Source: an uncultured Planctomycetales bacterium (lineage in GTDB: Bacteria > Omnitrophota > Gorgyraeia > Zapsychrales > JAHFFX01). From it: 64,000 nt of DNA. Location of the stretch: the NCBI GenBank assembly GCA_964612665.1, contig CAZTCI010000006.1, positions 141,750 to 205,749 of the forward strand. The letters run 5' to 3'. A model generated the notes under the pieces. It saw nothing but the letters and a program-made list of their open reading frames with translations, searched no databases and was not told the origin of the DNA. Position numbers and translations under genes: made by a program. Shown here piece by piece: positions 17,421-35,289 of this stretch (its first letter is position 1; every line of letters starts with the position of its first letter).

Positions 17421-17823
17421 TTTAGACCGAGTCGATATCTATAAAAAACGTAATTACAAATACTTAGGGAATATAGACTCAAGAAACCGCTCATCTTGAA
17501 AAACGAAAATTCATGTTTTATACTTTAAGAGCGTTATAGAAAGTTTGACGCGATAAAGGCAAACCTGCCGGAAGGCAGCGACCCAGGCTTCGCTGAATTT
17601 CAGCTTCGCCTGGCCTGGCAAAGTTCCAGCACGAAAGTGTTAGAGCAGAGCCGGGGCAAAACTAAAGGGGCCAAAACCAGTTTTTGAAGGAAGGGCCAGC
17701 CAGTTGCCGCACAGCTAGAGTCTATTCATCTGCATTGTACTGCTGCATTGCACTGCGAAATTGCCACCCGCCCTGGTTTTATGCTTTCAAAAATTTGGGA
17801 TGCCTCTAAGAAAGGATCCTGTT

Positions 17824-19737
17824 ATGAAAGCTCCTCGCTTTTTCTCCCGATTCCTTTTCGAAGAAAACATTGCCCTCACGCTTATTAGTGCATTCTTTTT
17901 GCTGTGTATTTTAAATTCGTCAGCTGTGGCGGCTGATTTTTATGTGGCCACCGACGGAAATGATAGTAATGCTGGGACGCAAACGGCACCTTTTAGGACT
18001 ATTGCCAAGGGGTTAGCCGCTGCTTCAGCAGGAGACTCTGTCATTGTTAAAGATGGTACCTATGGGCCAGAGGGAAATTATACGTGCGGCACTGTGTGTA
18101 GCCAGCAAACAGACTATACCACACCTGTTTCGATTTTAAAATCTGGAACAGCGTCCGCGCCAATTACTATTAAAGCTGAGCACAAGTGGGGAGCGGTCCT
18201 GGATTGCGGTCTCCCAGACGGATATGCTGGTGATGGAACGGATGGCGTGCAAGCCTGCGATTCTAATTTTATCCTCGATGGCGATGCCTCCTATATTACG
18301 ATTCAAGATTTTGATATAACCCGAGCTTATTGGGACGGTATCCATATTAATGGCACCGGTAACCACGACATTGTTATTAAAGGTAATCATATCCATCATA
18401 TTGGTAACCGACATTATATTGTTCCATCTGGGGCTGACGTTTTTGGTATAGATGGCGTATTTGCCGGAACAAGAACAAGCAATATTACGTTTGATGGCAA
18501 TGTTTTTAACAATATCGGCCGTCTGCCAACATCAGGTCAAAGCACGACCGATTATAATCACGATCACGGCATCTACATCTATAATGGCCCCTACAGCATC
18601 ACAAATAATATTTTTTACAACAATAAAGCAGGGTGGGGCATTCAAATATCACCGGGCACCCACGACACATATATTTACAATAATACGTTTTTCGGGGCGA
18701 ACCCGAACCGCGATGGTCAAATTACGCTTTGGGCAGATAGTAGCCATCCGCACACTAATATAAAAATAGCAAATAATATCTTTTATAATCCTCGTAACTT
18801 CGCAATCACCAGTTATCAGGACACAGAAAATGACAGCCTGATTACTAACAATATCGTCTGTTGCTCCGGAGTTGATGTCGTGAACACAGGTAGTATAGGC
18901 GGTAGTCTAACTGTTACGGATAATAAAACAAATACCGACCCCAGTTTTGTTAATGTAACTGCATATGACTTCCATTTAAATTCTTCCAGTCTTGCGAAAG
19001 GTGTTGGCATTGCCACTTCACCTGAAGTCCCAACTGATCTGGATGGAAATCTTCGCTCTTTACCTCTTGATCTTGGTGCTTATGAGGTGAAAGATACCAC
19101 TCAACCCGTTACGCCGTCGCCGAGTACCACTCTTGCTGATACAACACCTCCTACCGTTTTAATTACAGTACCGGCGAGCGACACCCAGGTTTCTGGAACG
19201 ATTACAATTAGTGCCACCGCTTCTGATGATATTCGAGTCGCGGGTGTTCAGTTTAAGGTCGATGACAAACCCGTTGGTGTTGAGCTGACAGCGGAACCAT
19301 ACAATTTTAGTCTCGACACCAAGACCTTAACTAATGCGACTCATGTAGTCACGGCCGTAGCGCGTGATACATCGAATAACATTTCGGTGTCAGCTCCTGT
19401 GAATATAAGAGTACAAAATGTAACACCTATCGTAATTTTAGATAATGTTCCGCCGACAATTTCCAATGTTCAAGTCTCAAATATCACTCCTTATTCTGCC
19501 ATAATTAGCTGGATCACCAATGAATTGTCTAATTCAGCGGCAGCCTATGGAACTATCGCCACGGATAAATCAGTTGTTAATGGACTTTTGGTTACGGTTC
19601 ACTCGGTTAGTTTAACAAACTTAAAACCAAAGACAGTGTATTCTTTCCAAGTAAGCTCCCGGGATGCTAGTCAAAATACGACTACTTCTGCGGTCATGAC
19701 TTTTCAGACACGGAGATCATACTACCGTTATCGATAG
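17824..19737 (+). CDS. Secreted right-handed parallel beta-helix (pectate-lyase fold) protein with C-terminal Ig-like (Big) and fibronectin-III domains
   Basis: Signal peptide, FYVATDGNDSNAGTQTAPFRTIAKGLAAASAGDSVIVKDGTY beta-helix cap, repeated NN(I/V)F(Y/F)NN coils, Big-like segment TPPTVLITVPASDTQVSGTITISATASDDIRVAGVQFKVDD, and an FN3-like end. Confidence 0.7.
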   Translation: MKAPRFFSRFLFEENIALTLISAFFLLCILNSSAVAADFYVATDGNDSNAGTQTAPFRTIAKGLAAASAGDSVIVKDGTYGPEGNYTCGTVCSQQTDYTTPVSILKSGTASAPITIKAEHKWGAVLDCGLPDGYAGDGTDGVQACDSNFILDGDASYITIQDFDITRAYWDGIHINGTGNHDIVIKGNHIHHIGNRHYIVPSGADVFGIDGVFAGTRTSNITFDGNVFNNIGRLPTSGQSTTDYNHDHGIYIYNGPYSITNNIFYNNKAGWGIQISPGTHDTYIYNNTFFGANPNRDGQITLWADSSHPHTNIKIANNIFYNPRNFAITSYQDTENDSLITNNIVCCSGVDVVNTGSIGGSLTVTDNKTNTDPSFVNVTAYDFHLNSSSLAKGVGIATSPEVPTDLDGNLRSLPLDLGAYEVKDTTQPVTPSPSTTLADTTPPTVLITVPASDTQVSGTITISATASDDIRVAGVQFKVDDKPVGVELTAEPYNFSLDTKTLTNATHVVTAVARDTSNNISVSAPVNIRVQNVTPIVILDNVPPTISNVQVSNITPYSAIISWITNELSNSAAAYGTIATDKSVVNGLLVTVHSVSLTNLKPKTVYSFQVSSRDASQNTTTSAVMTFQTRRSYYRYR

Positions 19738-19989: not shown

Positions 19990-20289
19990 ATGGTCAAAAG
20001 AATTCTAATACTAACCTTGATCCTTTTAACGCTACTTTACACGAGAATTTTCGCCGCGGTTAAAGTTAACCCGCTGGATGTAGCTTCAAAGGATAAAGTC
20101 TCTGGAAATAAACAAAAAAATGATGATTCAAAAGAAACACGGGGTGAGGTTTCCACAACTACATCCCCTAAAAATGCCGAAAATTCGGCTACCCCATATA
20201 TCCCTCCATCCATACCTGATCCAACTGACGTTGAGAAAGAGATCTTAGATGATGAAGCTGTGCAAGACATCAGTCCTATTGGTCGGTAG
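19990..20289 (+). CDS. Small secreted low-complexity protein
   Basis: Signal peptide MVKRILILTLILLTLLYTRIFA; the remainder is Ser/Thr/Pro/Asp-rich. Confidence 0.4.
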   Translation: MVKRILILTLILLTLLYTRIFAAVKVNPLDVASKDKVSGNKQKNDDSKETRGEVSTTTSPKNAENSATPYIPPSIPDPTDVEKEILDDEAVQDISPIGR

Positions 20290-20314: not shown

Positions 20315-21544
20315 TTGGACATACTTATGAAGAAATCAACAACAGCTTTGGCTTTTTTAACGCTATTATTTTTCACCCGCAACGCCTTTTCAGATATATC
20401 AATCAGAGAAGAGAGTCTCGAACTCCGCCAGCGCGAATTCCAAGATATTAAAGGAATCCGGATTGGAGACTCCGCCCGCCTAAAAGCAATGCTCTCCGAA
20501 GAAGGACAATATGAGAGCAACATCTTCTTAACTTCAAACAATAAAAAGCACGATTATATCAGTATCACTAGCCCCAAATTTCTTCTCGATGTGCCCATGG
20601 GAACCGAAGCCCGTCATCTTTTTCAGTTAATGTATGCGGCTGATATCGGTTCTTTCGCCAATTTTAAAAGCCAGAATTATGTCAACCAGAATGTCCTTGC
20701 CAGCGCTAACGGGGAACTTCCTTTTGGATATTTTGATATTCAAGACGATTTCAAAGATACCGTGGACCGTTCGTTCACCGAATTTACCGAACGGGTTCGC
20801 AGGGATGAGAACTTTGCCCAAGCCGTTTTAGGCGTGGAAGCGAACAGACTCACCTACGAAATCGGTTATTCTAACTTCCTCCGCAAATACCTTGATGAAC
20901 AATTTGATGATTTAAGTTATTCTGAGAATTTTTTGTCAGCCACTGTCTTTTATCAGCTTTTCCCCAAAACAAAAACGCTTCTTGAATATGATTACGGGTT
21001 CTTGGATTATCTTAATGATTCAACGCGCGACGGGGATTATAACCAGATCCGCACCGGTTTCAAATATGACTTAACTGGAAAGACAACTGGGATTGTAAAG
21101 TTGGGGTATCAACAGAGAAGTTACGATACACAGGGGCCTTCTGGCTTCAATGGATTTGTTTCCGAGGCCGAGTTGACAACGCATCTTTCAGAGAACACGA
21201 CGATAGATTTGAAACACCTTAATATAGCGGTTGAATCAATTGATGCTAGCAATAATTATTTTCATTTAATTTCCACCATGTTAAATGTGACCCAGAAAAT
21301 CAGGGGTCATTTTAGTATTTTAAGTACTTCCCGGTTCGACCGGCGGAATTATCCAGAGCAGGACGTAAGTTTGGGCAAAAAACGCCGGGATTCGGTTGTG
21401 TCACAAGAGATCAGTTTGCAATACGACATTAAAGAACGTGCTCAAATTAATCTGGGCTACCAATATACGGACGATATGTCAAATATCGACGTGAATGATT
21501 ATAATGATCACCTGATTTCCTTACGTTTTAATTTTTTACTGTAA
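20315..21544 (+). CDS. Outer-membrane beta-barrel protein of the polysaccharide export locus (BBP2/EpsL-like)
   Basis: Signal peptide MKKSTTALAFLTLLFFTRNAFS, alternating hydrophobic beta-strands with frequent Y/F, terminal ISLRFNFLL. Confidence 0.5.
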   Translation: MDILMKKSTTALAFLTLLFFTRNAFSDISIREESLELRQREFQDIKGIRIGDSARLKAMLSEEGQYESNIFLTSNNKKHDYISITSPKFLLDVPMGTEARHLFQLMYAADIGSFANFKSQNYVNQNVLASANGELPFGYFDIQDDFKDTVDRSFTEFTERVRRDENFAQAVLGVEANRLTYEIGYSNFLRKYLDEQFDDLSYSENFLSATVFYQLFPKTKTLLEYDYGFLDYLNDSTRDGDYNQIRTGFKYDLTGKTTGIVKLGYQQRSYDTQGPSGFNGFVSEAELTTHLSENTTIDLKHLNIAVESIDASNNYFHLISTMLNVTQKIRGHFSILSTSRFDRRNYPEQDVSLGKKRRDSVVSQEISLQYDIKERAQINLGYQYTDDMSNIDVNDYNDHLISLRFNFLL

Positions 21545-21550
21545 GCAACT

Positions 21551-22231
21551 TTGGTCCGACAAATGAAAAAAATTCACTATACATTCTTTATATTTCTTTT
21601 TTTCAGCTTTGTGGCCGCTGGCCAAGTGTTCTCCCAGGACAAGACTGCAATGGCACCGCTCCAAGATATTTCGATTCTTACCTCTTCCCATACCACTCCT
21701 AACAAATTAGATTCTTTTGATTCCCATAGTGCCGAATACACCATAGGTCCAGAGAATGTTCTACAAATCGATGTCTATTACGGCAAAGGAGACAAGATAT
21801 CGCAGAAAGTCCGCGTTTCTTCGCAAGGAACAATTGATTTCCCACTCGTTGGACAAGTAGAGGCCGGCGGCCTGACCGTTGCTCGCTTTCAGGAAAAGTT
21901 AAGAAAGTTATTAGAAAAAGACTTTCTCGTCGACCCGCAGGTCACGGTTTTCATAGAAGAATATAGTACTGTGTCAATAATGGGGGAAGTCAAGAAACCC
22001 GGCGTCTATCCGATTAAAGGCCGGTTGACGGTCGTAGAATTGATTTCTCTGGCGGAAGGATTTACAAAAATTGCTGCCCAAAACAAGGTAAAAGTCATTC
22101 ACACGAAGCCCGATGGGCAGAAAGAACAAATGGTGGCGCGTGTTTATGACTTCATGAACAAAAATGACGACCAAGCCAATGTCGTTTTATCTTCCGGTGA
22201 CGTTGTTATTGTCCCGGAAAGTTTATTTTAA
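21551..22231 (+). CDS. Polysaccharide export protein, Wza-like (Poly_export + SLBB domains)
   Basis: YTIGPENVLQIDVYYG...GTIDFPLVGQVEAGGLTVARFQEKL...VSIMGEVKKPGVYPIKGRLTVVELISLAEG. Confidence 0.8.
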   Translation: MVRQMKKIHYTFFIFLFFSFVAAGQVFSQDKTAMAPLQDISILTSSHTTPNKLDSFDSHSAEYTIGPENVLQIDVYYGKGDKISQKVRVSSQGTIDFPLVGQVEAGGLTVARFQEKLRKLLEKDFLVDPQVTVFIEEYSTVSIMGEVKKPGVYPIKGRLTVVELISLAEGFTKIAAQNKVKVIHTKPDGQKEQMVARVYDFMNKNDDQANVVLSSGDVVIVPESLF

Positions 22232-22241
22232 GGAATAAATT

Positions 22242-25200
22242 ATGCCTGATTTACATCCATCTGCACATGATCTTATCGAAATTGATTTTCAGGAAATCCC
22301 TAGAAAATTAGTAAAACACCGCAAAAAGATTATTTCAATTGTGGCCACGTGTGTGGTCTTGGCGGCGATCTTTTCTTTTAAGCAGACGCCAATCTACCGC
22401 GCGACGAGCCGAATCATGGTAGACAGTCAACCACCAAAGATTGTGAAGGTGGAAGAAGTTGTCCTGCCCGATTTTGCCGATCGCCCCAATTTTTTTAATT
22501 CCCAAATCGAAATCCTAAAAAGTCATACTTTGGCTGAGTTGGTTTTTCAAGATCTGGGCGGCTATGAGCCTTTAGATCGACGGGGAAAACCCGCAAACAA
22601 ACTTAAACCCATTACAACAGATGAGCGCATTGAGGCCCTCTTAAAACAAGTTAAGATTGCTCCAGTAAGAATGACGCAAATCATTGCTGTCAGTGTCGAA
22701 GACCCAGATCCGAAATTGGCGGCCAGCATTGCCAATAAATGGAGCCAGGCTTATGTGTTTTTTTCATCAGTTGATCAATTAATTCAACGACGCAGTGAAT
22801 TAGAATCGGATCTTAGTCAGCAATTAAAATTTTTGAAGAAGATGCATCCAGTTATTTTAGGGTTACAGAATCAAATCCAGATACTTAATGAAAAAATTGA
22901 CAACGAACGCAAGCGTTTGAGCAAGCAAGAAAATGTTTCGTATAATTCAATGTCATCCAGCGAAATTACGAACGTCAAAATTTTAGACCGCGCTCAAATT
23001 CCACTTAAACCTGTACGGCCTCAAAAAGCGCTCAATATTCTGTTGGGACTTATTTTTGGCGGATTCTTTGGTTTTGCCCTGGTGTTTTTATTGGAATCGT
23101 TCGATCAAACTTTCAAGACAGCCTCTGAGATCGAAAAGGTTCTCAAGATTTCTTGTCTAGCCTCTATTCCTTTAAAGAATGATAACTTTCCGGCGGAACA
23201 TGTTTCATCGAGGATTCGGGATTCCGGTTTCGCTGAATCGTTCCGGGGTTTAAGAACACGCATTATCTTTAGCGAACCTAACCTTTCGAAAAGGACATTT
23301 GTTGTGACGAGTGCTTCTCCGGGTGAAGGTAAAACTAGTGTGGCGGTCAATCTGGCCACGGTTTTCGCTCAAGCCAATGAACGCGTCTTACTTGTCGATG
23401 CCGACATGCGAAATCCAAGGGTGCATAAAGTTTTTAAAATGAAACGGTCAAAAGGAATCGCCGACATTCTGGCGAATCATAAAGAAGATATAGAATCGTT
23501 CATTCATGAAACTGATATCCCAGGATTAGAAATTTTAACCTGCGGAGAAGTGCTGTCGAATCCTTCTGAACTCCTTAGTTCGAAAAGGCTGAAAGATTTC
23601 ATAAACATATTATTGACAAGATATGACCGCATCATTTTCGATACACCACCGGTATTGGCAGCCACTGACGCGGTCGTTCTCGCGACCCGGGTAGACACAA
23701 CAATTTTAGTGATCAGCTCGGACATTACAACCCGTCAAGCGGCTATACGCTCTAAAGAGGCACTAACCTCTGTGCATGCGCCGATTTTAGGCGCTGTTTT
23801 TAATATGGTGAAGATGGATATGCACGGATACGATGCTTACAATTATTTTTATGAAGCTAATCTTCAAAAACAGACGGAGAAGAAACGGTTTACAGTTATT
23901 AAGGAAGGGACGTCTTTTATTCTTTTTCTGGCCGCTATGATGGCCGCCCCCTTGATGTACGGTTCTGTACATATGACTTCTCAACTAATCGTATCGCTTC
24001 TGGCTTTGCTGAGTTTTTATTTTATCCTCATGGCCAGGCCAAAGGCATTAAAGTCCGTGATGAATTCTTTTTTAACAATGTTAGGAATAGGTTTATTTAC
24101 TTTTGCGCTTTGTCAATTGATACCAATTCCATTAAATATAATTAAATTTCTCTCGCCGGCAGCCCATGATATTTACAATCGGTATTTGCCGGGAGGAGTT
24201 CAATCTAAACAATTAGTAACATTCTCTCTTTATCCTTCAGACACGTTGCGTGGCATTCTTCAATTTGTGCTTTACGCGTTGGTCTATATCATCACAAGAT
24301 TGTTTCTTTGGACAGATGAGAAAGATTTTCCATCAGTTCGTACCAAAATTCTCGAGCAAGCAAGATATTTAAAACTAAGCTGTTTGATCGGCGTTTTGTC
24401 GCTTCTTTTTCACAGCCTTTATGATTTCAACCTTCACATTCCTGCTAACGGAATGTTTTTTATGTTTCTGTTGGCCATTGCAACCGGAGGTCCAACGGAA
24501 AATTATGACCATGTCTTTTTCCGGCGGGCTGTGCATTTTATTGTCTTTTTTGGTTTTTCAATGGCTGTATTTGCCATTGTGCAGAGTTGGCTGTTTAACG
24601 GACACATATTTTGGGTCGGCATGCCGGCGCCCCACCCGGTAGGATCGTATTACAATTATGATCACTTCGCCGGTTTCATGGAACTGTGCAGCGCGGTCGC
24701 CGTTGGCATGTTCTTTGCGTCTTTTCTCTATATATCGTTTCCATCGAAGCGGAATAAAAATAAGATAAGTTGGCGGAACGCTCGGGAGCTTTATGTTTTT
24801 CTCGGATATTTATTAATGGCTTCCGTCATGATTTCGACGATTTTTCTCTCCACATCCCGCGGCGGCATCATGAGTTTTCTTTTAAGTCAGATTATTTTTC
24901 TTTTTTTGATATTTATAGCGGAAGGGGAAGCCAGTCGAAGGGCAAAGACCATAACGGCTATTGCAACGGTCATAGCGTTGAGCGCAGTGATTGTGGTTTG
25001 GCTGGGGCCCCAGGCCTTTTTGGAACGGTTTCATCTTTTATCTATACAAAACATTGTAAAAATGGAAGGACCTATTAATCCACGGTTAGCTTTTTATCAT
25101 GATACTCTGCGGGTTATTAAGGATTTTCCGATTTTTGGAAGCGGGTTGAACACTTTTGCCACGAACTTCACGCATTACCGTACATTTGATTACACGCCTA

Positions 25201-25334
25201 ATTTTTTGCGCTATACCCATAATGATTATCTTCAACTTGTTTCCGAAACCGGATTGGCAGGCATGATTTTTCTTTTTGCCTTTTTATTTTACTTCGTTTC
25301 ATGCACTCGCCGAGTGGTTAGAGAAATAAAATGA
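22242..25334 (+). CDS. Fusion protein: Wzz/GumC-type chain-length determinant + BY-kinase (Wzc-like, with C-terminal Tyr cluster) fused to a Wzy/O-antigen-ligase-like polytopic membrane domain
   Basis: Single uninterrupted 1030-codon ORF. Residues 1-540 have the Wzz TM helix, coiled region, second TM helix, Walker A SPGEGKTS, A' VDADMRNP, B IIFDTPPV and a Tyr cluster YDAYNYFYE. Residues about 560-1030 have about 10 TM helices and Wzy_C motifs TSRGG and HNDYLQLVSETGLAGM. Confidence 0.8.
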   Translation: MPDLHPSAHDLIEIDFQEIPRKLVKHRKKIISIVATCVVLAAIFSFKQTPIYRATSRIMVDSQPPKIVKVEEVVLPDFADRPNFFNSQIEILKSHTLAELVFQDLGGYEPLDRRGKPANKLKPITTDERIEALLKQVKIAPVRMTQIIAVSVEDPDPKLAASIANKWSQAYVFFSSVDQLIQRRSELESDLSQQLKFLKKMHPVILGLQNQIQILNEKIDNERKRLSKQENVSYNSMSSSEITNVKILDRAQIPLKPVRPQKALNILLGLIFGGFFGFALVFLLESFDQTFKTASEIEKVLKISCLASIPLKNDNFPAEHVSSRIRDSGFAESFRGLRTRIIFSEPNLSKRTFVVTSASPGEGKTSVAVNLATVFAQANERVLLVDADMRNPRVHKVFKMKRSKGIADILANHKEDIESFIHETDIPGLEILTCGEVLSNPSELLSSKRLKDFINILLTRYDRIIFDTPPVLAATDAVVLATRVDTTILVISSDITTRQAAIRSKEALTSVHAPILGAVFNMVKMDMHGYDAYNYFYEANLQKQTEKKRFTVIKEGTSFILFLAAMMAAPLMYGSVHMTSQLIVSLLALLSFYFILMARPKALKSVMNSFLTMLGIGLFTFALCQLIPIPLNIIKFLSPAAHDIYNRYLPGGVQSKQLVTFSLYPSDTLRGILQFVLYALVYIITRLFLWTDEKDFPSVRTKILEQARYLKLSCLIGVLSLLFHSLYDFNLHIPANGMFFMFLLAIATGGPTENYDHVFFRRAVHFIVFFGFSMAVFAIVQSWLFNGHIFWVGMPAPHPVGSYYNYDHFAGFMELCSAVAVGMFFASFLYISFPSKRNKNKISWRNARELYVFLGYLLMASVMISTIFLSTSRGGIMSFLLSQIIFLFLIFIAEGEASRRAKTITAIATVIALSAVIVVWLGPQAFLERFHLLSIQNIVKMEGPINPRLAFYHDTLRVIKDFPIFGSGLNTFATNFTHYRTFDYTPNFLRYTHNDYLQLVSETGLAGMIFLFAFLFYFVSCTRRVVREIK

Positions 25335-25735
25335 AGACAATGGTTGTACTTGTCAGTCTTATTTATTTTTTTGTTTTAATTTGTGTCGGCGCAGCAGAAA
25401 TAATTTCCAAACGAGCGGTAGCATCTCACGATATCCATCTTCTTAACGTCGCCCAACGGTTATACCCTTTTGTATCGGATTATTTTTATGCCGAATACCG
25501 TCTTAATGGCAATCTCAGCGCCCTAGTTCATGCGATGTCCCTTGAGCCTACGAAGCCGGCGTATCATATGTATTATGGACTGGCCCTTTTAAAACGTTTG
25601 CCGAGAAGACAAGCAACCGACCAAGAGGCCGTTACCGAAATTTGTAAGGCTGCTCAGTTGAAACCTTATAGCCAAGTTTATCGTTCAGCTTGCGAACAGT
25701 ATCGCGCCGCGATTCCGATTTCAACAGTTTTCTAA
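25331..25735 (+). CDS. Hypothetical secreted/membrane-anchored protein
   Basis: N-terminal hydrophobic helix MKTMVVLVSLIYFFVLICVGAA; no recognisable domain. Confidence 0.4.
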   Translation: MKTMVVLVSLIYFFVLICVGAAEIISKRAVASHDIHLLNVAQRLYPFVSDYFYAEYRLNGNLSALVHAMSLEPTKPAYHMYYGLALLKRLPRRQATDQEAVTEICKAAQLKPYSQVYRSACEQYRAAIPISTVF

Positions 25736-25746
25736 TTGAGAATATT

Positions 25747-27087
25747 ATGCCAATTAAGAGACTTAAGAAAATTCAGGAAAAATTTATTCCAAAAGGTTCT
25801 TTTAAAGCCAACGTGCTGATTTTGATGATAGGAACAGCTGTATCGCAAGTGATGTTGATTGCAATATCACCGATTTTGTCCCGTATCTTTTCTCCAGAGG
25901 ATTTTGGTATTTATGGTGTTTATGCCGGGATTATCGCGATTGTCTCGTCGGTAGTTGCTTTAAATTATGAGTTGGCCATCCTTCTGCCGAAACATGATGA
26001 AGAGGCGATCAATTTAGTGGCCTTATCGGTTATCGCCTGTCTTGGCATGGCTGTTCTGAGCGGATTAATTGTGTGGGTTGTTCCTTTTAAATTTATTTAT
26101 CCTGAAAATCCAAAAGCAATTTCATCATGGATATGGATACTACCTGTATCCGTGATCACCTTAGGTATATTGGCGATATTAGAGGCATGGTGCACGAGGA
26201 AAAAACTTTTCCAACAATCGAGTTGGGCAAAAATTCTGCGCTCATTCGTCACGGGTGGTTATCAGATTTTTTCCGGTTATAAAGACGGCGGATCTTTAGG
26301 GCTGATTTTTGGAGCGGTTTTGGGAACCATTGTTGCCTCCGTCGGAGTTGTTGTATTGGTGATGCAGCAGAATTTTAAGACTTATCTGCAGTCGCTTCGA
26401 TGGAAAAAGATCCGTTCTCTAGCAAAAAGATATATTGATTTCCCGGTTTATTCATCTTCACAGAATCTGTTAAACGCGGTGTCGATCAGCGCTCCAGCGT
26501 TTTTCTTGACCTATTTTTATGGAGTCAAGATCGCCGGGTTTTATCTTTTGGGTATCAAATTGATACAGGTTCCGGCTGATTTAGTGTCGCGTTCTTTTCG
26601 GCAAGTGTTTTATCAAAAAGCGGCCGAGGTCCATAATGAGCAAGGAGACCTTTATCAAATTTTTAAAAGATCAACGATCCATTTGTTAATGATTGCGATT
26701 GTGCCGTCGCTCATCATATTCTTTTTTGCACCGATGATATTCAAAATTTTCTTGGGGCAAAATTGGGAGACGGCCGGCGAGTATTCCAGGTGGCTCGTCG
26801 TTTGGATCTACGTTAATTTTGCCAATGTTCCAGCCATTTGCTGTTACCGGATTCTTAATCTTCAATCGCGTTTGTTTCAAATTTATTTCTTCTATCTTAT
26901 TTTCAGGGTTTCAGCTTTATTGCTGGGCGGGTTTTTCTTTTCAGCTCAAACTTCAATTGTTTTATTCTCTGCGGTTGGATTATTTTTTAACATCTTTATC
27001 ATTCTTTATATTTGGAAACATTTGGATAAGACCATCGTAAAAGATCTACATGCTACAAACAAATTGGCATTAGCTAATCTTGAATGA
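25747..27087 (+). CDS. Polysaccharide flippase, Wzx-like (MOP/oligosaccharide flippase family)
   Basis: About 12 predicted TM helices; N-terminus ANVLILMIGTAVSQVMLIAISPILSRIFSPEDFGIYGV typical of Wzx/RfbX. Confidence 0.75.
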   Translation: MPIKRLKKIQEKFIPKGSFKANVLILMIGTAVSQVMLIAISPILSRIFSPEDFGIYGVYAGIIAIVSSVVALNYELAILLPKHDEEAINLVALSVIACLGMAVLSGLIVWVVPFKFIYPENPKAISSWIWILPVSVITLGILAILEAWCTRKKLFQQSSWAKILRSFVTGGYQIFSGYKDGGSLGLIFGAVLGTIVASVGVVVLVMQQNFKTYLQSLRWKKIRSLAKRYIDFPVYSSSQNLLNAVSISAPAFFLTYFYGVKIAGFYLLGIKLIQVPADLVSRSFRQVFYQKAAEVHNEQGDLYQIFKRSTIHLLMIAIVPSLIIFFFAPMIFKIFLGQNWETAGEYSRWLVVWIYVNFANVPAICCYRILNLQSRLFQIYFFYLIFRVSALLLGGFFFSAQTSIVLFSAVGLFFNIFIILYIWKHLDKTIVKDLHATNKLALANLE

Positions 27088-27093
27088 AGGAAT

Positions 27094-28239
27094 TTGATGA
27101 AACGATTCTTCTGGGACAGCATATTTTTTCTTTTAATTATCACTTCATTTACGTTGAGTGCGATTAAAGGTTTCTCCAGCCTTTCAATCGTTTTTACGAT
27201 TCTTTTTTTGTTTGGAATGTTTGAGGGCAGAAAATTAATTTTTTATAGAGGTTTGATTTGGCCGACGATATTCTTAGTTTTTAATGCTTTATCTTTGTTA
27301 TGGGGCGGCGATTTGGAGGAAGTAAGCAAGGTCAGTTCAGCTGTCTTATTCGGGGTAGCTATCTTTATGGGATTAAAAACCGGAAAGAGGGTTCCGGTTT
27401 TAGTGGCGGCGTTGACGGTAAGCGCCATTGCCAATATTGTTCTTTCTTATGGGAACATGGCTGACTTTCAAGTGGATGAAGAAAGCCGGGTTTCGGGTTT
27501 ATTCGGCAATGCCAATGACGTGGCGGTTTTCTTATCCTTAGCGGCGTTTACTATTTATTTTTTGAGCAGCAAAAGAACATTGTTGATTAAGCTGATGACA
27601 TTTTCCATTTTGGCCTTTGTCTTTTTTTATACGGGCAGCCGGCAAGGATTATTTTTAGTTGTGTTTATCCTCGGAGCCATTTTCATTAATTATTACCGTG
27701 GGTTAAACACGGTGACTAAATTTTGGTTTTTACCGGTTTTTTTAGCTGTTCTATTGTGTTCGATGACTCTTTTACAGGTCGTTCAGAATTATTCAGAAGA
27801 TGTTATTGTCCTCAAGAGACTCGACACATTTTTAAGCGGTACTGAAAAAGGATCGGCCCAGACCCGTTCATTTATGATCGAGAAGGGGTTAACGCTGTGG
27901 CACGAAAAACCAATTTTAGGATGGGGCGCGGGAGGGTTCGCTCACAATAGTTATTTTGGTGTGTATTCGCATAATACGTATGTTGAACTATTAGTTAATT
28001 ATGGATTAGTCGGGTTTTGCCTTTATTTTGCTTTTTCGATTTACTTATTCATTAAGGGATGGGAAACGAGGCCAAATTCTTTTGCAAGCATCGGAATCCC
28101 TATTATTCTAATGCTTCTTGTTGTCGGCATGTGGGCGGTGATGTTTCGATCCAAGACGGGTTGGTTGTTTTTAGGAATAGCGGCGTATTGTGTGTCTTTG
28201 CGTGACAGTATGGTCACTGAAGCAAGGAGAATCGAGTGA
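27094..28239 (+). CDS. O-antigen polymerase/ligase family membrane protein (Wzy_C domain)
   Basis: Polytopic; YTGSRQG and AHNSYFGVYSHNTYVELLVNYGLVGF match the Wzy_C signature. Confidence 0.7.
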   Translation: MMKRFFWDSIFFLLIITSFTLSAIKGFSSLSIVFTILFLFGMFEGRKLIFYRGLIWPTIFLVFNALSLLWGGDLEEVSKVSSAVLFGVAIFMGLKTGKRVPVLVAALTVSAIANIVLSYGNMADFQVDEESRVSGLFGNANDVAVFLSLAAFTIYFLSSKRTLLIKLMTFSILAFVFFYTGSRQGLFLVVFILGAIFINYYRGLNTVTKFWFLPVFLAVLLCSMTLLQVVQNYSEDVIVLKRLDTFLSGTEKGSAQTRSFMIEKGLTLWHEKPILGWGAGGFAHNSYFGVYSHNTYVELLVNYGLVGFCLYFAFSIYLFIKGWETRPNSFASIGIPIILMLLVVGMWAVMFRSKTGWLFLGIAAYCVSLRDSMVTEARRIE

Positions 28240-29366
28240 AGATCTCATTAGTTTTACCTGATTTTGCCGGCGGCGGAGCCGAAAGAGTTTTTACAACCTT
28301 GGCCAGAGAATTTGTCGAACGTGGCCATGATGTTGATTTGGTGATTGCTAATAATAACAATCCCGCGTATCTGCATTTGATTCCAGCGCAGGTGCGCATT
28401 ATTGATCTGAAAGCCGCGCGCATGCGGCAAAGTCTTTCTTCATTAATCAAATATTTCCGTCAGCATCAACCGGATGTTGTCATGGCGACCCGGCTTCATT
28501 CGTGTTGTTTTGTTGTTTTAGCAAAAATATTTTCCGGTATTAACACCAAAGTGGTGTTAAGAGAAGCTAACACGCCTTCTTCTGATTTAAACAAATATGC
28601 TCGGTCAAAGCGGTTGCTATTAACATCGTTTGTAAGATTTTTATATCCATTGGCAGATGCGATCATTTGTGTTTCACAAGGTGCGGTTAATGACACTAAA
28701 GAATTTATAAAAACTGCCAGCGGGAAAGTCCATTTGATTTATAATCCAGTTTTGACCGAAGACCTTTTTATCGACGCGGCTAAGCCGTGTGAACATCCAT
28801 GGTTTTCTAAAAATACAATTCCAGTGATTGTGAGCGTCGGCAGGTTATCTTCGCAGAAAAGATTTGATGTTCTGATCAAAGCGTTTGCGGTTGTCCACAA
28901 GCGCAGACCTGTACGCCTATTAATATTGGGGGATGGAGGAGATCGTCCAGCCCTTCAATCTTTGATCATGAGTTTGAATTTGCAAGATGATGTCAGTTTA
29001 CCGGGATTTGATTCTAATCCTTTTAGATTTATGGCCAACGCAGATCTTTTTGTTCTTTCATCGGCATGGGAAGGACTGCCCGGTGCTTTGATCCAAGCGC
29101 TGGCTTGTGGCTGCCCGGTTGTCAGCACTGATTGTCCGAGCGGACCGCGGGAAATATTAAAAGCCGGACGTTTAGGTAAACTTGTGCCGGTCAACGATAG
29201 TGAAGCCATGGCCAAGGCGATTGAGGAAACCCTTGACCAAAAACCTCGACGGATTTCTCAAGAAGACCTGAATGAATATACGGTGGACCAGGCCATCGAC
29301 CGCTATCTACGCATTTTTGGTTTGTCTAACAGGGAGATGGCACCATGCGCGATATCAAAGAGTTAG
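28236..29366 (+). CDS. Glycosyltransferase family 4
   Basis: MKISLVLPDFAGGGAERVF... N-terminus and C-terminal EGLPGALIQALACGCPVVSTD (Glycos_transf_1). Confidence 0.85.
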   Translation: MKISLVLPDFAGGGAERVFTTLAREFVERGHDVDLVIANNNNPAYLHLIPAQVRIIDLKAARMRQSLSSLIKYFRQHQPDVVMATRLHSCCFVVLAKIFSGINTKVVLREANTPSSDLNKYARSKRLLLTSFVRFLYPLADAIICVSQGAVNDTKEFIKTASGKVHLIYNPVLTEDLFIDAAKPCEHPWFSKNTIPVIVSVGRLSSQKRFDVLIKAFAVVHKRRPVRLLILGDGGDRPALQSLIMSLNLQDDVSLPGFDSNPFRFMANADLFVLSSAWEGLPGALIQALACGCPVVSTDCPSGPREILKAGRLGKLVPVNDSEAMAKAIEETLDQKPRRISQEDLNEYTVDQAIDRYLRIFGLSNREMAPCAISKS

Positions 29367-30319
29367 TTGTTCTTTCCAAAGATTTCTTGAAATTTGTAAG
29401 CGGTAAAGATTATTCGCGTCAGCCGCAGCCTTTGGGAAAATATTTTGAAGATCCGCGCTGTTATTACAACGATTTACGCGGTAAATCAGTTTGGAGAGGA
29501 TCAGTTATCGACGGCGTTCCCGCTTTAAAACTAGCTTCGACGGGTGGATTATTATTATTTCCCATTGACATATTTTTGTATGGACTCGGGAGCCTGGACC
29601 GCTATTTCTTTGATAAAGATTCTTCTGTAATGGAAAGAATCACCACTGTGGCAGTTTGGATGACGAATGCTATTGGTGCAGACGGAAGCTTTGATGAAAA
29701 GTGGAAGGAGATGAGTCCGCATCAAGAATTTTATTCGAATAACAGCGGCATGGGCCAAGGATTAGCTTTGTCTTTTGCGATAAGAGTTGTGAAATACAAT
29801 CTCTGCAGCGCAGAAGTAAAAACTCGCCTTGAAGACGTCATTGAGAGAGTAAAAAATAACATGTTGCTGCCCGTTGCGCAAGGCGGCACACGTTTTGATA
29901 CAAGTACGAGAGGCGTTGCTTTCTTGGAATTCCCCCGCAAAGATGGGAATATTGTTTTGAACGGATGGATTTTTGCGGTCTTTGGGCTTTATGATTATTT
30001 AAACTATAAAAAAGATTCTGAAGTGGAAAAAGTATACCAGTTAACGCTTAACACCATGGAAGCCATGCTGCCTGACTACCATCTGCCGAACGGGTGGGCC
30101 ATTTATGACAACATGAACAGGATTTGTTCTCCTTTTTATCAAGATCTTCATATTTCTTTAATAGAGGCCATGTATAAAATCACTAATAAAGAAATCTTCG
30201 GCCAATATCTGGAAAAAGCCAGAAAAGCGAACACCGCGGTTAATCGTTTGTATTTCACCTCAAATAAGATTATGGAGAAATTGTTTAAAGATAAAGAAGC
30301 TTATGTCAGCGCTGAATGA
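29345..30319 (+). CDS. D-glucuronyl C5-epimerase C-terminal-domain-like ((alpha/alpha)6 toroid) protein
   Basis: Segments NNSGMGQGLALSFAIRV and IVLNGWIFAVFGLYDYLNY resemble the SAMGQGQA... and ...VLNGFMYSLIGLYDL... blocks of animal glucuronyl C5-epimerase as I recall them. Confidence 0.4.
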   Translation: MRDIKELVVLSKDFLKFVSGKDYSRQPQPLGKYFEDPRCYYNDLRGKSVWRGSVIDGVPALKLASTGGLLLFPIDIFLYGLGSLDRYFFDKDSSVMERITTVAVWMTNAIGADGSFDEKWKEMSPHQEFYSNNSGMGQGLALSFAIRVVKYNLCSAEVKTRLEDVIERVKNNMLLPVAQGGTRFDTSTRGVAFLEFPRKDGNIVLNGWIFAVFGLYDYLNYKKDSEVEKVYQLTLNTMEAMLPDYHLPNGWAIYDNMNRICSPFYQDLHISLIEAMYKITNKEIFGQYLEKARKANTAVNRLYFTSNKIMEKLFKDKEAYVSAE

Positions 30320-30356
30320 AATGAATCGGCGCAATTTTAAGCGGGAGGAAGAAGTT

Positions 30357-31556
30357 ATGCAGGAAAAATTACTTGTATACATTACTGCTTTTATCCCATT
30401 TGGGAAAACAGAAAGCTTTGTTCTGGAAGAGGGGTTCGCTCTTAAGAACCTCTATAAGAATTTTTTAATTATCCCTCGCAATCCGCCGAAAGAAATCTTC
30501 CATCAAAAGGGCAAACAGCTTCGCGATAATGCCATTTGGCTGCCGCTTTTTAATTTAAAAATTATATTCAATTTTTTGATGGCTTTGTTTTCACCGCGCG
30601 TTTGGGCTGTGATTGGAGCGATTGTCCGCCATTCGAGAAATTTTAAGACCTGCCTAAAGAATTTTGTGGTTTTGCCAAAGACGCTTTACGTTATTCGTTT
30701 GTTAAAGGAGCGTAATGTGGGACACATTCACGCACACTGGGGAAGTACAACCGCCACTATGGCCTATATTATTCATAGACTGATAGGGATTCCCTATAGC
30801 TTTACTCTCCATCGATGGGATATCTATGAAAATAATATGTTAAGGGAGAAGGTTCAGATGGCCAGTTTCGTTAGATGTATTTCGCAAAAAGGAAAGGATG
30901 ATGTTTTGACTATAGTCGGGCACGATCTGAAAGATAAAGTTCATGTCGTGCATATGGGTGTGGATTTGCCGTCTATTGATCTTCCAGATGAACTGCATAA
31001 GCCGTTCATTATGATGATTCCCGCAAACCTGCTTCCAGTCAAAGGGCACCGATATCTTATTTCGGCATGCCAGCGATTAAAGATCAAAGGTTTTAATTTT
31101 AAATGTTATATCGCCGGCGATGGGCCTTTGGAAACCGAATTGAAAAAAATGGTCCAGGACCGCGGGCTGACAAGTGAGGTTTTGTTTTTAGGGCGCTTGC
31201 CGCATGAGCAGATTATTGAGATGTATAAGGATCATTTGGTCGATATGGTAATTCTTCCTAGTATTAATTCCGATGCTGGAGATATGGAAGGGATTCCGGT
31301 GGCGTTAATCGAGGCAATGTCTTACGGGATCCCGGTTATATCGACGGACACGGGTTCTATTTCAGAATTAATCAGCGATCACTGCGGCATTAAAGTTCCG
31401 GAGAAGAACAGCGAATTGTTAGCGGAAGCTATTGAAAAGCTCGTGAGAGACCCGGAATATTATGGACGGATCAGCGTTGGAGGGCGGAAAAAAGTTGAGA
31501 ATGAATTCCAGCGCTCCTCGATTTCGGCCGCATTAATTAGTTTAATCGGTACTTAA
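30357..31556 (+). CDS. Glycosyltransferase family 4
   Basis: C-terminal EGIPVALIEAMSYGIPVISTDTGSISELI (Glycos_transf_1). GGGAGGAAG RBS upstream of the ATG at 30357; the ORF track starts at 30303. Confidence 0.75.
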   Translation: MQEKLLVYITAFIPFGKTESFVLEEGFALKNLYKNFLIIPRNPPKEIFHQKGKQLRDNAIWLPLFNLKIIFNFLMALFSPRVWAVIGAIVRHSRNFKTCLKNFVVLPKTLYVIRLLKERNVGHIHAHWGSTTATMAYIIHRLIGIPYSFTLHRWDIYENNMLREKVQMASFVRCISQKGKDDVLTIVGHDLKDKVHVVHMGVDLPSIDLPDELHKPFIMMIPANLLPVKGHRYLISACQRLKIKGFNFKCYIAGDGPLETELKKMVQDRGLTSEVLFLGRLPHEQIIEMYKDHLVDMVILPSINSDAGDMEGIPVALIEAMSYGIPVISTDTGSISELISDHCGIKVPEKNSELLAEAIEKLVRDPEYYGRISVGGRKKVENEFQRSSISAALISLIGT

Positions 31557-31557
31557 G

Positions 31558-32421
31558 ATGTCTTTTGAAGAATTTATTAAATCCTTTGCCGGGATTTTTG
31601 TCAGAATCACCGGAATAAGCTTTCTTATGCGTGAGGTCGTCTTAAGGAACAAAAGCTCTATTTTATGTTATCACAATCCGTCGGCCCAGCGTTTTAGACA
31701 GCACTTAAAGTATCTTACGAAAAGATACAACATTATTCCTTTGGAGACTTTGACTGAAGCCATCAAAAGCAAGGATTGGTCAGCCATTCCTCCGAAAAGC
31801 TTAGTGATCACTTTTGATGACGGCTTAAAAGAGAATTACGATTTGGTGGCGGTTCTACGTGAATTTCAAATCCCAGTGACGCTTTATTTGTGCAGCGACA
31901 TTATTAACACCAACCGTCATTATTGGTTTTTAACGGGCGTTTCCAATGTTCAAGAGCTGAAGCGCCGCACGACTGAAGAGCGCTTGGCTGTTTTAAAACA
32001 AACCGTGGATTATGAACCGATGAAGGAATACGCTCATCGTCAGGCTTTGAACTTACAGGAAATCAAAGAGATGACAACTCATTTCAACTTTGGGTCGCAC
32101 ACACGTTTTCATCCGATTCTGCCTAAATGCGGTGATGCGGAAAGTTTAGAAGAAATTAAAGGATCTAAAGAATCTTTAGAAAAAATTTTGAAGCGCCCTG
32201 TTCGGCATTTTTCTTATCCCAACGGTGATTTTGGTGACCGGGAAATTGCTTATGTAAAGCAAAGCGGATATGCGTCGGCTGTTACCATGAAGATGGGATG
32301 CAATGATATTAATTCCAATTTATTGTGTTTAAAAAGAGTCGGTATCTCAGACAGGGCTTCCATAAATGAACTCGCCGCAGAGATGACTTGGCTTTTAACT
32401 TGCTTAAGGCGATTTAATTAG
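31558..32421 (+). CDS. Polysaccharide deacetylase (NodB homology, CE4)
   Basis: LVITFDDGLKENYDLVAVLREFQIPVTLYL; HTRFHP His motif. Confidence 0.75.
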   Translation: MSFEEFIKSFAGIFVRITGISFLMREVVLRNKSSILCYHNPSAQRFRQHLKYLTKRYNIIPLETLTEAIKSKDWSAIPPKSLVITFDDGLKENYDLVAVLREFQIPVTLYLCSDIINTNRHYWFLTGVSNVQELKRRTTEERLAVLKQTVDYEPMKEYAHRQALNLQEIKEMTTHFNFGSHTRFHPILPKCGDAESLEEIKGSKESLEKILKRPVRHFSYPNGDFGDREIAYVKQSGYASAVTMKMGCNDINSNLLCLKRVGISDRASINELAAEMTWLLTCLRRFN

Positions 32422-32435
32422 GATTAGCTGAAACT

Positions 32436-33473
32436 ATGTTCACCAATTACGTTTCTATTATTATTCCTTGCCGCAATGAAGAAAGGCACATTCAAGCGTG
32501 TCTCGATTCGATCCTGGAACAGGACTATCCGAAAGACCAGTTAGAAATTTTGGTGGCTGATGGAATGAGCACGGATAAAACCCGCGACATATTGAAAAGA
32601 TATGCGGCCCAATATCCATTCATCCGGTGGTTTGATAATCCTCAGAAGATTGTTCCCACCGGGCTTAATGTTTTAATCAGAGAGGCCAAAGGAAACATCA
32701 TTATCCGCATGGACGCGCATACCGATTATCTTGAGGATTATGTGTCTCAATGTGTTCATCATCTCATGGAAAGCCAGGTTGATAATGTCGGCGGAATTTG
32801 TGTCACATTGCCTGAATCCAACTCTCCAGTTGCCCAAGCTATTGCATTGGCTTTATCAAGTCCGTTTGGTGTTGGTAATTCTTCTTTTAGAATCGGCGTC
32901 AGTGAGCCGCAGCTCGTCGATACCGTTCCTTTTGGATGTTTTAAACGTGAAGTGTTTGACAGGATTGGGTTGTTTGACGAAGATTTGGTACGCAATCAAG
33001 ATGATGAACTTAACTCGCGTTTAATTAAAAGCGGAGGGAAAATCCTTCTCGTCCCAAAGATTGTTTCAAAATATTACGCGCGTGGTTCTTATAAAAAATT
33101 GTGGAGGATGTATTTTCAATACGGCTATTTTAAACCTTTGACGATCGTGAAACTGGGTGGCGTGATGACTTGGCGGCAGTTGATTCCAGCATTGTTTATC
33201 AGCTCGCTTATATTTTGGGGAATAACATCGTTGTTTTCTCCTTTCTGTCAGTGGCTTTTCTTTTTGGAAGGTGGGTTGTATATCCTCGGGAATTTGGCCG
33301 CTTCACTGGGTCTCGCTCTTCGTCGAGGAATTCTTCTTTTACCTTATTTGATGGCGGCTTTTCTGGTGATACATTTTGGATATGGACTTGGTTATATGAA
33401 AGGAATTTATCATTTTCTCATTCTTAAACGGCATCTAAAAAACAAAGTGAACGATATGGCGCTTAGCCGTTAA
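32436..33473 (+). CDS. Glycosyltransferase family 2 with C-terminal membrane anchor helices
   Basis: VSIIIPCRNEERHIQACLDSILEQDYPKDQLEILVADGMSTD... DxD-type GT-A fold and four C-terminal TM helices. Confidence 0.8.
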   Translation: MFTNYVSIIIPCRNEERHIQACLDSILEQDYPKDQLEILVADGMSTDKTRDILKRYAAQYPFIRWFDNPQKIVPTGLNVLIREAKGNIIIRMDAHTDYLEDYVSQCVHHLMESQVDNVGGICVTLPESNSPVAQAIALALSSPFGVGNSSFRIGVSEPQLVDTVPFGCFKREVFDRIGLFDEDLVRNQDDELNSRLIKSGGKILLVPKIVSKYYARGSYKKLWRMYFQYGYFKPLTIVKLGGVMTWRQLIPALFISSLIFWGITSLFSPFCQWLFFLEGGLYILGNLAASLGLALRRGILLLPYLMAAFLVIHFGYGLGYMKGIYHFLILKRHLKNKVNDMALSR

Positions 33474-33506
33474 CCTTGCGCGAGTTCCCTAGAAAGTACA
33501 GACAAC

Positions 33507-34664: not shown

Positions 34665-34665
34665 T

Positions 34666-35289
34666 ATGATGTACAGAAATTTTGGGAAACGTTTGATGGA
34701 TCTGTGTTTATCTTTGATTGGATTAGTCGTGTCTATTCCGATTTTTGTGATTGTTCCACTGCTGATTAAGGTCGATTCACCGGGCACTGTTTTTTTTCGG
34801 CAAAAAAGAATGGGCCGTGACGGAGGTTTTTTTGATCTGATCAAATTCCGCACCATGGCCGCCGATAAGGAAAGAGAGCGAAATGGTTTTGAACCCGGTT
34901 CGTCTTTACGGGTCACTAGGGTTGGAAAAATTTTACGTAAAACAAAGTTAGATGAAATTCCCCAACTGTTAAATGTTTTTATGGGACAGATGAGTTTTGT
35001 GGGGCCGCGTCCTGAGGTTGCGCGATACAAAGATTTTTATACGGGAAAGTTTGCTCAAGTCTTAAGCGTTCGTCCAGGAATAACAGACCGCGCGTCGATT
35101 AAGTATCGTCATGAAGAAGAAATTTTGGCCCGAAGCAACGATCCGGAAAAAACCTATCGAGAAATCATATTGCCGGACAAGTTAGGGATTGCTTTGTCGT
35201 ACATTAACAATGGCATTAGTCTCGGGGAAGACATTGACATTGTATTTCAAACTCTCCTAGCAATTGGAAAAGGAAAAAATGAACACTAA
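34666..35289 (+). CDS. Initiating phosphoglycosyl (sugar) transferase, small PglC/WbaP-C-like
   Basis: KRLMDLCLSLIGLVVSIPIFVIVPLLIKVDSPGTVFFRQKRMGRDGGFFDLIKFRTM...PQLLNV..GQMSFVGPRP. Confidence 0.85.
   Translation: MMYRNFGKRLMDLCLSLIGLVVSIPIFVIVPLLIKVDSPGTVFFRQKRMGRDGGFFDLIKFRTMAADKERERNGFEPGSSLRVTRVGKILRKTKLDEIPQLLNVFMGQMSFVGPRPEVARYKDFYTGKFAQVLSVRPGITDRASIKYRHEEEILARSNDPEKTYREIILPDKLGIALSYINNGISLGEDIDIVFQTLLAIGKGKNEH

Follow-up and report, generated by a model that had tools for sequence, protein, structure and literature searches.

A Wzc-type tyrosine kinase co-polymerase fused to a WaaL-like Wzy_C-superfamily domain in an Omnitrophota polysaccharide locus

The Wzc protein of E. coli (K30, colanic acid) has two transmembrane (TM) helices around a Wzz/GNVR domain, Walker A, A' and B motifs and a Tyr cluster, and it works with an outer-membrane polysaccharide export (OPX) protein and a Wzx/Wzy pathway in which Wzy is a separate protein. 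In polysaccharide co-polymerases (PCPs) of the PCP-2a type that are bacterial tyrosine kinases (BY-kinases), the Tyr-rich cluster normally lies at the extreme C terminus. According to the current model, a PCP octamer forms a transmembrane cage that holds one Wzy (PMC12881504; PMC12819527). The subject of this analysis is a gene in a 64,000-nucleotide stretch of contig CAZTCI010000006.1 (the window), deposited as an uncultured Planctomycetales bacterium and placed by GTDB in the Omnitrophota. The N half of its product has the same helices, domains, motifs and cluster as E. coli Wzc, and the window system likewise includes an OPX protein and a Wzx/Wzy pathway. The differences are a periplasmic domain of about half the size (~215 aa) and an internal Tyr cluster, after which comes a 12-TM enzyme domain.

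The gene does encode, as one fused polypeptide, a Wzc-type PCP-2a BY-kinase and a member of the Wzy_C/O-antigen-ligase superfamily. This was the central claim of a reading made from the sequence alone, and both the domain matches and the fused orthologues bear it out. The open reading frame (ORF) list gives 22242..25334 (+) as one uninterrupted frame of 1030 codons, as the sequence-only reading had said; it is initiated at an ATG and has no internal stop. The parts of the gene are as follows.

22242..25334, + strand: fused gene, PCP-2a BY-kinase and WaaL-like Wzy_C-superfamily domain, 1030 aa (ORF, Pfam/NCBIfam, AlphaFold2 (AF2), fused orthologues P0002-P0004)
22329..23093, + strand: membrane and periplasmic part of the PCP, with TM1 at aa 30-48, a Wzz/GNVR periplasmic domain of ~215 aa and TM2 at aa 266-284 (hydropathy, Pfam)
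23235..23849, + strand: cytoplasmic BY-kinase domain, aa 332-536 (TIGR01007, motif scan, Foldseek)
23829..23852, + strand: Tyr cluster YDAYNYFY, with Y530, Y533, Y535 and Y537 (sequence, junction alignment)
23853..23906, + strand: basic linker EANLQKQTEKKRFTVIKE (junction alignment; AF2 helix 538-571)
23907..25331, + strand: WaaL-like GT-C(B) enzyme domain with 12 predicted TM helices, R873 (SRGG), R948 (NPR) and H993/D995/E1002 (HNDY...E)
24342..24485, + strand: TM hairpin with an HSxxDFNxHIPxN motif, aa 701-748 (non-collinear BLASTP against P0188; consensus order of the A2 alignment)

The N half is a complete PCP-2a BY-kinase, except that its Tyr cluster is not C-terminal and its periplasmic domain is short. 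Pfam models, all of which exceed their gathering scores on the 1030-aa protein, place Wzz at aa 13-105, GNVR at aa 235-283 and the AAA_31/ParA P-loop domain at aa 350-551. The NCBIfam model TIGR01007 (BY-kinase domain) covers aa 332-536 with 180.5 bits against a cut-off of 108. AF2 helices at 27-47 and 262-287 coincide with the hydropathy peaks of the PCP part at 30-48 and 266-284, and this part matches the Wzc structures 9EXO and 7NHR in Foldseek (E about 1e-26 to 4e-27). The kinase motifs found by a motif scan are intact: Walker A GEGKT at 361-365, Walker A' VLLVDADMR at 382-390 and Walker B IIFDTPP at 464-470. Compared with the kinase domains of CapAB and Wzc, the domain has a target-normalised TM-score of ~0.9 (Foldseek).

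The Tyr cluster sits inside the chain rather than at its C terminus, and 493 residues come after it. The strings that had been quoted for the fusion are present: HGYDAYNYFYEA with Tyr 530, 533, 535 and 537, SRGG at 872-875, and HNDYLQLVSETGLAGM starting at 993. A cluster of three to six Tyr is retained in all of the fused and unfused relatives in the junction alignment. The segment around the cluster appears to be flexible in the AF2 model, because the predicted local distance difference test score (pLDDT) falls below 50 at 529-541. The linker EANLQKQTEKKRFTVIKE comes from the basic tail of the kinase, and in the model its helix continues into TM1 of the enzyme domain.

Model score, fold and catalytic residues all place the C half in the Wzy_C superfamily, and it is not collinear with canonical members. 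Pfam Wzy_C (PF04932) matches aa 860-1012 (E 5.5e-18, 65.6 bits against a cut-off of 31.7), so that models for Wzz, the BY-kinase P-loop and Wzy_C, the three domains named from the sequence, all match above their cut-offs. Twelve long helices are present in the AF2 models, and both the linker at the N terminus of the domain and its C terminus are basic. The models are thus consistent with a coherent topology in which the kinase, the Tyr cluster and the basic tail are cytoplasmic and both ends of the 12-TM domain lie inside the cell. The AF2 model of the full fusion has a pLDDT of 87.9.

That the fusion is real and was born from neighbouring genes is close to certain. The alternative is that the long ORF is an artefact in which a sequencing or assembly error erased the stop between two separate genes. 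Such an error is conceivable in that the nearest unfused relatives have abutting genes, one pair being a single stop codon short of fusion. No frameshift or join is visible in the DNA at 23850-23900, where one had been considered possible, nor was any irregularity seen around 23,800-24,060, and base composition is even along the whole fused gene. Two Logan assemblies made independently, one each from SRR12313479 and SRR12313477, match 9.1 and 7.3 kb of the window DNA with 100% identity, so that two runs and the metagenome-assembled genome (MAG) agree, and the identical protein (P0001) was called on four contigs. Three more fused orthologues come from other, unrelated samples: P0002 (1028 aa, NCBI MAG GCA_016307145.1), P0003 (1012 aa, found on six Logan contigs) and P0004 (1022 aa, from JGI). 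They are 55-57% identical to the window fusion and have the same uninterrupted architecture, with continuous frames, matching synteny and linkers that differ in length and sequence among all four. The independent assemblies and the diverged orthologues rule out the artefact, which is left with practically no probability.

Neighbour-joining trees of either half group the four fused sequences in one clade, with a bootstrap of 88.5% (kinase) and 100% (enzyme). Because they form a single clade and have diverged from each other with differing linkers, the sequences indicate one ancient fusion that has been kept through considerable divergence. Two points weigh against the overall reading of the fused protein given below. 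The AF2 monomer has a predicted TM-score (pTM) of 0.62, so that the packing of the domains is uncertain, and the fused chain may be split by internal translation initiation or proteolysis.

The unfused relatives suggest how the fusion arose. The nearest unfused kinases are 566-576 aa long and 50-62% identical, and those named at source are from Candidatus Omnitrophota/Omnitrophica MAGs. For the C half, the closest relatives are free-standing proteins of ~480 aa annotated as O-antigen ligase family, with 44-54% identity over the full length; the named ones are again from Omnitrophota. These stand-alone proteins (P0121, P0126) are orthologous to the C half and have the same transposed hairpin (see below). 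They are encoded directly downstream of the kinase, in the position of the fused C half, and differ from it in being separate chains that start MLLLLAD... where the window fusion has an in-frame linker. A kinase gene lies directly upstream of a core Wzy_C gene on the same strand in at least 19 species-representative GTDB Omnitrophota loci, with gaps mostly of -17 to +13 nt. At the unfused locus L002 the kinase stop overlaps the Wzy_C start as TGATG. At another, L007:11633-11800, the kinase and Wzy_C are in the same frame and are parted by a TAA and a TTG codon only (...SRKS*LMPMSDVLLF...), and this pair is one substitution, or one stop-codon read-through, short of the window architecture. Since the halves are adjacent in unfused relatives and in frame with a single TAA in L007, the fusion is a derived state that arose through stop-codon loss. 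It is lineage-specific, within a clade of Candidatus Omnitrophota. No fused form was found in a profile scan of ~25 GTDB Omnitrophota species representatives, and a scan of genome contigs with the single protein as query gave no match.

The fusion is very rare in public sequence data. A search of 5.8 billion clusters at 90% identity with the full-length query returned only four fused clusters, those of the single clade described above, and one of them is the window's own protein. In an exhaustive phmmer search of 1.84 billion representatives at 50% identity, one fused representative (P0004) was among the best 150 matches; these reach down to ~235 bits, and any weaker independent fusions would lie outside those listed. 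None of the four fused proteins has a name or accession at source. A natural fusion of a PCP with Wzy (Wzc/Wzz-Wzy) was not found in searches of the literature, including a 2025 review of Wzy and a survey of cyanobacterial exopolysaccharide (EPS) systems. The fusion is therefore apparently undescribed, as a new architecture of known components and not a categorically new system. Other long phmmer matches are different BY-kinase fusions (P0252, P0289, P0360, P0291). They include an OPX-PCP protein of 820 aa with Poly_export, SLBB, Wzz and kinase domains (that is, Wza-Wzc), a Wzc-OmpA protein of 940 aa, a Wzc-SPOR protein of 973 aa, and a Wzc extended by a ~490-aa tail of acidic repeats. An unusual architecture was also seen for Wzy_C itself: P0180, P0181, P0183 and P0190, one of them from Candidatus Methylomirabilis, are Wzy_C proteins of 630-750 aa with an N-terminal DnaJ domain (PF00226).

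The key residues of the enzyme domain resemble those of WaaL. In WaaL and PglS, arginines bind the pyrophosphate of undecaprenyl pyrophosphate (Und-PP) and a histidine is the proposed catalytic base (PMC12800693). A profile of the window family matches one solved protein only, the WaaL of Cupriavidus metallidurans (7TPG/7TPJ, E 6e-19). In this alignment the SRGG Arg, the RxxxW-type Arg and the AHND His of the family correspond to R191, R265 and the AHND His of WaaL. Across 41 family members that are 33-54% identical to the window protein, R873, R948, H993, D995 and E1002 never change, and the domain therefore looks catalytically competent. The AF2 model of the C half (pLDDT 88.9, pTM 0.91) superposes on WaaL over 290 residues. 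The C half alone found no match in the PDB with phmmer and no significant one with Foldseek. Neither it (at E up to 1) nor the second Wzy_C of the locus matches an NCBIfam family; models for O-oligosaccharyltransferases (O-OTases; TfpM and others) and for the exosortase-associated ligase TIGR03097 were without a match to the C half, and the distant relative P0188 reaches TIGR03097 only weakly (38 bits against 188). An affiliation with exosortase/PEP-CTERM systems was considered and rejected: the matches of the barrel and the kinase to EpsL and XrtA-associated models are below threshold, and neither an exosortase nor a TIGR03097 match was found.

The fold of this family has been rearranged. The TM hairpin at aa 701-748 is C-terminal in P0188 and in the wider consensus; in the window fusion it comes after TM4 and ahead of the catalytic core. 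BLASTP of the C half against P0188 aligns query residues 155-182 with 380-407, while the flanks align with 8-135 and 133-356. The transposition is common to the whole Omnitrophota ~480-aa Wzy_C family, including P0126 and P0121, which ends one helix past the HNDY motif. With such a rearranged fold, and with no curated NCBIfam enzyme family matched, the C half could be thought of as a membrane scaffold without catalytic activity, there only to anchor or organise the Wzc assembly. The invariance of the Und-PP-binding Arg pair and catalytic His across the 41 members, together with the confident model and its superposition on WaaL, make a scaffold very unlikely.

The sequence-only reading had called the C half a polymerase domain and elsewhere "a polymerase or ligase", and the gene neighbourhood favours the second of these terms. 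The genes around the fusion are as follows.

17761..19737, + strand: 658-aa protein with a Pel9A-like/DUF1565 beta-helix, Big_7 and fn3 (Pfam)
19990..20289, + strand: small secreted protein, 99 aa, with PY(I/T)PP and a C-terminal DISP motif (tblastn, alignment)
20315..21544, + strand: outer-membrane beta-barrel, BBP2_2, EpsL-like (Pfam PF10082, E 1e-18; weak TIGR03014 match)
21551..22231, + strand: short OPX protein of 226 aa, Poly_export and one SLBB, no outer-membrane helix, Class-3 type (Pfam, literature comparison)
25331..25735, + strand: membrane-anchored periplasmic protein, 134 aa, two invariant Cys (ORF, alignment)
25690..27087, + strand: Wzx-type flippase, called gene starting at 25747 (Pfam Polysacc_synt_3, E 1e-20; L003 gene call)
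27094..28239, + strand: free-standing Wzy_C, 381 aa, in the variable region (Pfam Wzy_C, E 3.5e-15)
28236..37195, + strand: repeat-unit synthesis genes for GT4, C5-epimerase, GT4, deacetylase, GT2, DegT aminotransferase, Bac_transf priming transferase and Polysacc_synt_2 dehydratase (Pfam)

From its gene content, the locus from ~17.8 to 37.2 kb appears to be a complete Wzx/Wzy-dependent pathway with an export core of Class-3 type. The second, free-standing Wzy_C gene had been noticed from the sequence and is confirmed by its Pfam match; such a gene is present in the window, L001, L005 and L007. A repeat-unit polymerase is expected in the variable part of a locus, where it diverges with Wzx and the glycosyltransferases. 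Identities were compared across five loci with long flanks (the window, L001, L005, L007 and L002). They are 45-59% for the outer-membrane barrel, 59-74% for the OPX protein, 53-62% for the kinase, 46-62% for the core Wzy_C (the fused domain and its orthologues) and 43-62% for the ~130-aa downstream protein. For the separate Wzy_C in the glycosyltransferase region identity falls from 59% to 30% and then 25%, and for Wzx from 64% to 42% and then to no match. The core genes are uniformly conserved, and the separate Wzy_C and Wzx diverge in step, as expected of a flippase and polymerase pair that is specific for the repeat-unit structure. In a sister subclade of the kinases (L088, L089, L090), the genes that come directly after those for barrel, OPX and kinase encode Wzx, glycosyltransferases and a polymerase candidate of the EpsG family (PF14897); no core Wzy_C, ~130-aa protein or small upstream protein was found in these three loci. 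Each locus has its own polymerase candidate in the variable region, and therefore the core Wzy_C would be supernumerary.

The fused domain neither diverges with the variable region nor is the only indispensable candidate, which are two genomic marks of a polymerase, and it is probably not the main repeat-unit polymerase. The separate 381-aa Wzy_C at 27094-28239 is the likely polymerase. The other possibility is that the fused domain is a Wzy polymerase wired to the co-polymerase and kinase, which would place chain-length control and polymerisation in one polypeptide. Its membership in the Wzy_C family and its conserved catalytic Arg and His fit such a role, as do the well documented interaction of PCPs with Wzy (PMC12881504; PMC12819527) and the adjacent or overlapping gene pair across the phylum. 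The second Wzy_C, however, changes in step with Wzx and the glycosyltransferases, and the conservation of the fused domain equals that of the export core; sister loci carry an EpsG-type polymerase candidate in place of the core Wzy_C; and a 1:1 stoichiometry is at odds with one Wzy per octamer. A fused polymerase is therefore unlikely. The part of the earlier label that stands better is "ligase": the chance that the fused domain is a ligase or terminal transferase, accessory to the polymerase, is put at about even.

Several points weigh against this preference for a ligase. WaaL is the sole structure of the Wzy_C superfamily that was matched, and because no structure of a Wzy_C-type polymerase was among the matches, the likeness discriminates only weakly between ligase and polymerase. 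Both Wzy_C proteins of the locus share the R...GxGxGxF...HNxY motif set. The co-occurrence sample is small, with six long-flank loci that have the core Wzy_C and three that lack it. The conservation argument presumes that polymerases track the structure of the repeat unit, and a polymerase acting on a conserved backbone would look conserved too. Finally, no genes for the lipopolysaccharide (LPS) core (waa) were found in the scanned parts of the window.

Two small accessory genes accompany the core Wzy_C. One encodes the 134-aa protein and shares 4 nt with the end of the fused gene, including its stop. The protein is anchored in the membrane at its N terminus and has no Pfam match. It was considered as a possible detached TPR domain, but its likeness to the start of the TPR region of Wzy_C-TPR proteins is weak (BLASTP E 0.011; hhalign probability 55%). 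Proteins of ~130 aa with 43-62% identity are encoded wherever the core Wzy_C is present (six of six loci) and are absent from the three loci without it. The small secreted protein upstream of the barrel is present in five of five loci with the core Wzy_C and in none of three without it (L088, L089, L090). It has a signal peptide, is rich in Ser, Thr and Pro, and has an invariant D-I-S at its C terminus. Elsewhere it is 163-173 aa long (L001:5547-6068, L005:5632-6129, L007:7512-8018, L002:5150-5641), and the 99-aa protein of the window is without the central domain of ~70 aa. The distribution of these genes suggests an accessory trio, made up of the WaaL-like enzyme, the ~130-aa periplasmic partner and the small secreted protein, that was added to a conserved core of barrel, OPX and PCP.

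The WaaL-like enzyme may have the small secreted protein as its acceptor or partner. In one special form of the ligase reading the fused domain is an O-OTase like PglL or TfpO, transferring a glycan or polymer onto protein, with the DISP protein as candidate acceptor. The Wzy_C superfamily takes in O-OTases (PMC12800693), and the composition of the DISP protein, its invariant C-terminal motif and its strict co-occurrence with the core Wzy_C would suit an acceptor. On the other hand, neither the NCBIfam O-OTase models (TfpM and others) nor TIGR03097 match, the co-occurrence is based on five loci with the gene and three without, the window's small protein lacks the central domain, and nothing ties the DISP Ser to glycosylation. 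An O-OTase of this kind is accordingly rated as rather improbable.

Other features of these loci concern the export core and its surroundings. The trio of short OPX protein, outer-membrane beta-barrel and PCP-2a is found in every related locus compared. The gene for the 658-aa beta-helix protein lies beside the export core both in the window and at L001 (L001:2799-4931, -), the locus of a fused orthologue, and the protein may be a lyase or depolymerase for the same polymer. No tyrosine phosphatase of the low-molecular-weight (LMW-PTP) or PHP type was seen among the genes scanned near the kinases. Between the core Wzy_C and the ~130-aa protein, two unfused relatives (L002:10710-11417; P0008 contig) have a gene for a calcineurin-like phosphoesterase (Metallophos). 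An Acidobacteriota chromosome (OY970275.1, L083) has, in this order, genes for a sensor kinase, a sigma54 response regulator, a TPR protein (4-nt overlap), Wzy_C, OPX and a PCP-2a BY-kinase. About 50 loci among L033-L087 are similar to it; in Acidobacteriota, too, the nearest Wzy_C relatives are part of a conserved core. Judged by these gene orders, the association of Wzy_C with the kinase recurs across phyla in another arrangement.

The preferred reading of an accessory ligase suggests how the system may work. Flipped repeat units would be polymerised by the 381-aa Wzy_C. The fused WaaL-like domain, which keeps the Arg/Arg/His set, would take the Und-PP-linked polymer made inside the Wzc assembly and move it to a conserved acceptor that is independent of the polymer, either a lipid or a protein, so that the chain is terminated, anchored or released. 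The covalent tether would put this transfer step under the control of Wzc oligomerisation. The phosphorylatable Tyr cluster would become a hinge between kinase and enzyme, with the helix after it running into the membrane. The eight 12-TM domains of an octamer would sit at the periphery of the Wzc cage, or the assembly would differ, because eight such domains cannot fit a lumen thought to hold one Wzy. A more specific version is a machine with two enzymes, in which a free Wzy works inside the Wzc cage and an outer ring of kinase-tethered WaaL-like transferases caps finished chains onto a dedicated acceptor. This could be the Ser of the DISP protein, giving a protein-anchored polysaccharide, and phosphorylation of the Tyr cluster would gate termination. 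This two-enzyme version is speculative and has a low probability; if true, it would tie BY-kinase cycling mechanistically to chain length, a connection that researchers have looked for over decades.

The fusion bears on how co-polymerases and membrane enzymes work together. How Wzc-type co-polymerases and kinases communicate with membrane transferases of Und-PP-linked glycans is a standing question, and the picture of one Wzy in a Wzc octamer is drawn from a WzzE-WzyE complex seen at low resolution and from AlphaFold models. A natural fusion that has been retained is independent genetic evidence, of the "Rosetta stone" kind, for physical contact between a PCP-2a kinase and an enzyme of the Wzy_C superfamily (GT-C(B)), and it fixes a 1:1 ratio that the cage model cannot accommodate. 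As a ready-made stable complex it is also a target for structural work. The unrecognised accessory module on Class-3 OPX cores hints at ligation or anchoring of exported polysaccharide in the Omnitrophota, a phylum without a cultured model.

In the Class-3 OPX/barrel pathways of Myxococcus xanthus (EPS, BPS and MASC; PMC9601211, PMC9603273, PMC12819527), a short OPX protein is found beside a barrel and a PCP-2a kinase, as it is here, and 20315-22231 of the window extends this composite arrangement of OPX and barrel to the Omnitrophota. The OPX proteins of these Class-3-like loci have Poly_export and one SLBB in 194-230 aa. Compared with Myxococcus, the Omnitrophota core adds the WaaL-like enzyme, the ~130-aa periplasmic protein and the small secreted protein, and in four Omnitrophota lineages the kinase is fused to the enzyme. 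WaaL (7TPG/7TPJ) is the only solved structure matched by the window-family profile, with the key Arg/Arg/His aligned, but identity is 14% and the window domain has a transposed TM hairpin and is fused to a kinase. Classical WaaL also sits with LPS-core genes, while the window gene is in an EPS export core between OPX and Wzx. In WzzE-WzyE (enterobacterial common antigen) and the modelled Wzc-Wzy platform, a PCP is physically coupled to a polytopic Und-PP-glycan transferase, as in the fusion. There the coupling is non-covalent and one polymerase lies in an octameric cage, whereas every PCP chain of the fusion bears an enzyme that is probably not a polymerase, and the ratio of enzyme to PCP is forced to 1:1 in place of the 1:8 proposed for Wzc-Wzy (PMC12881504).

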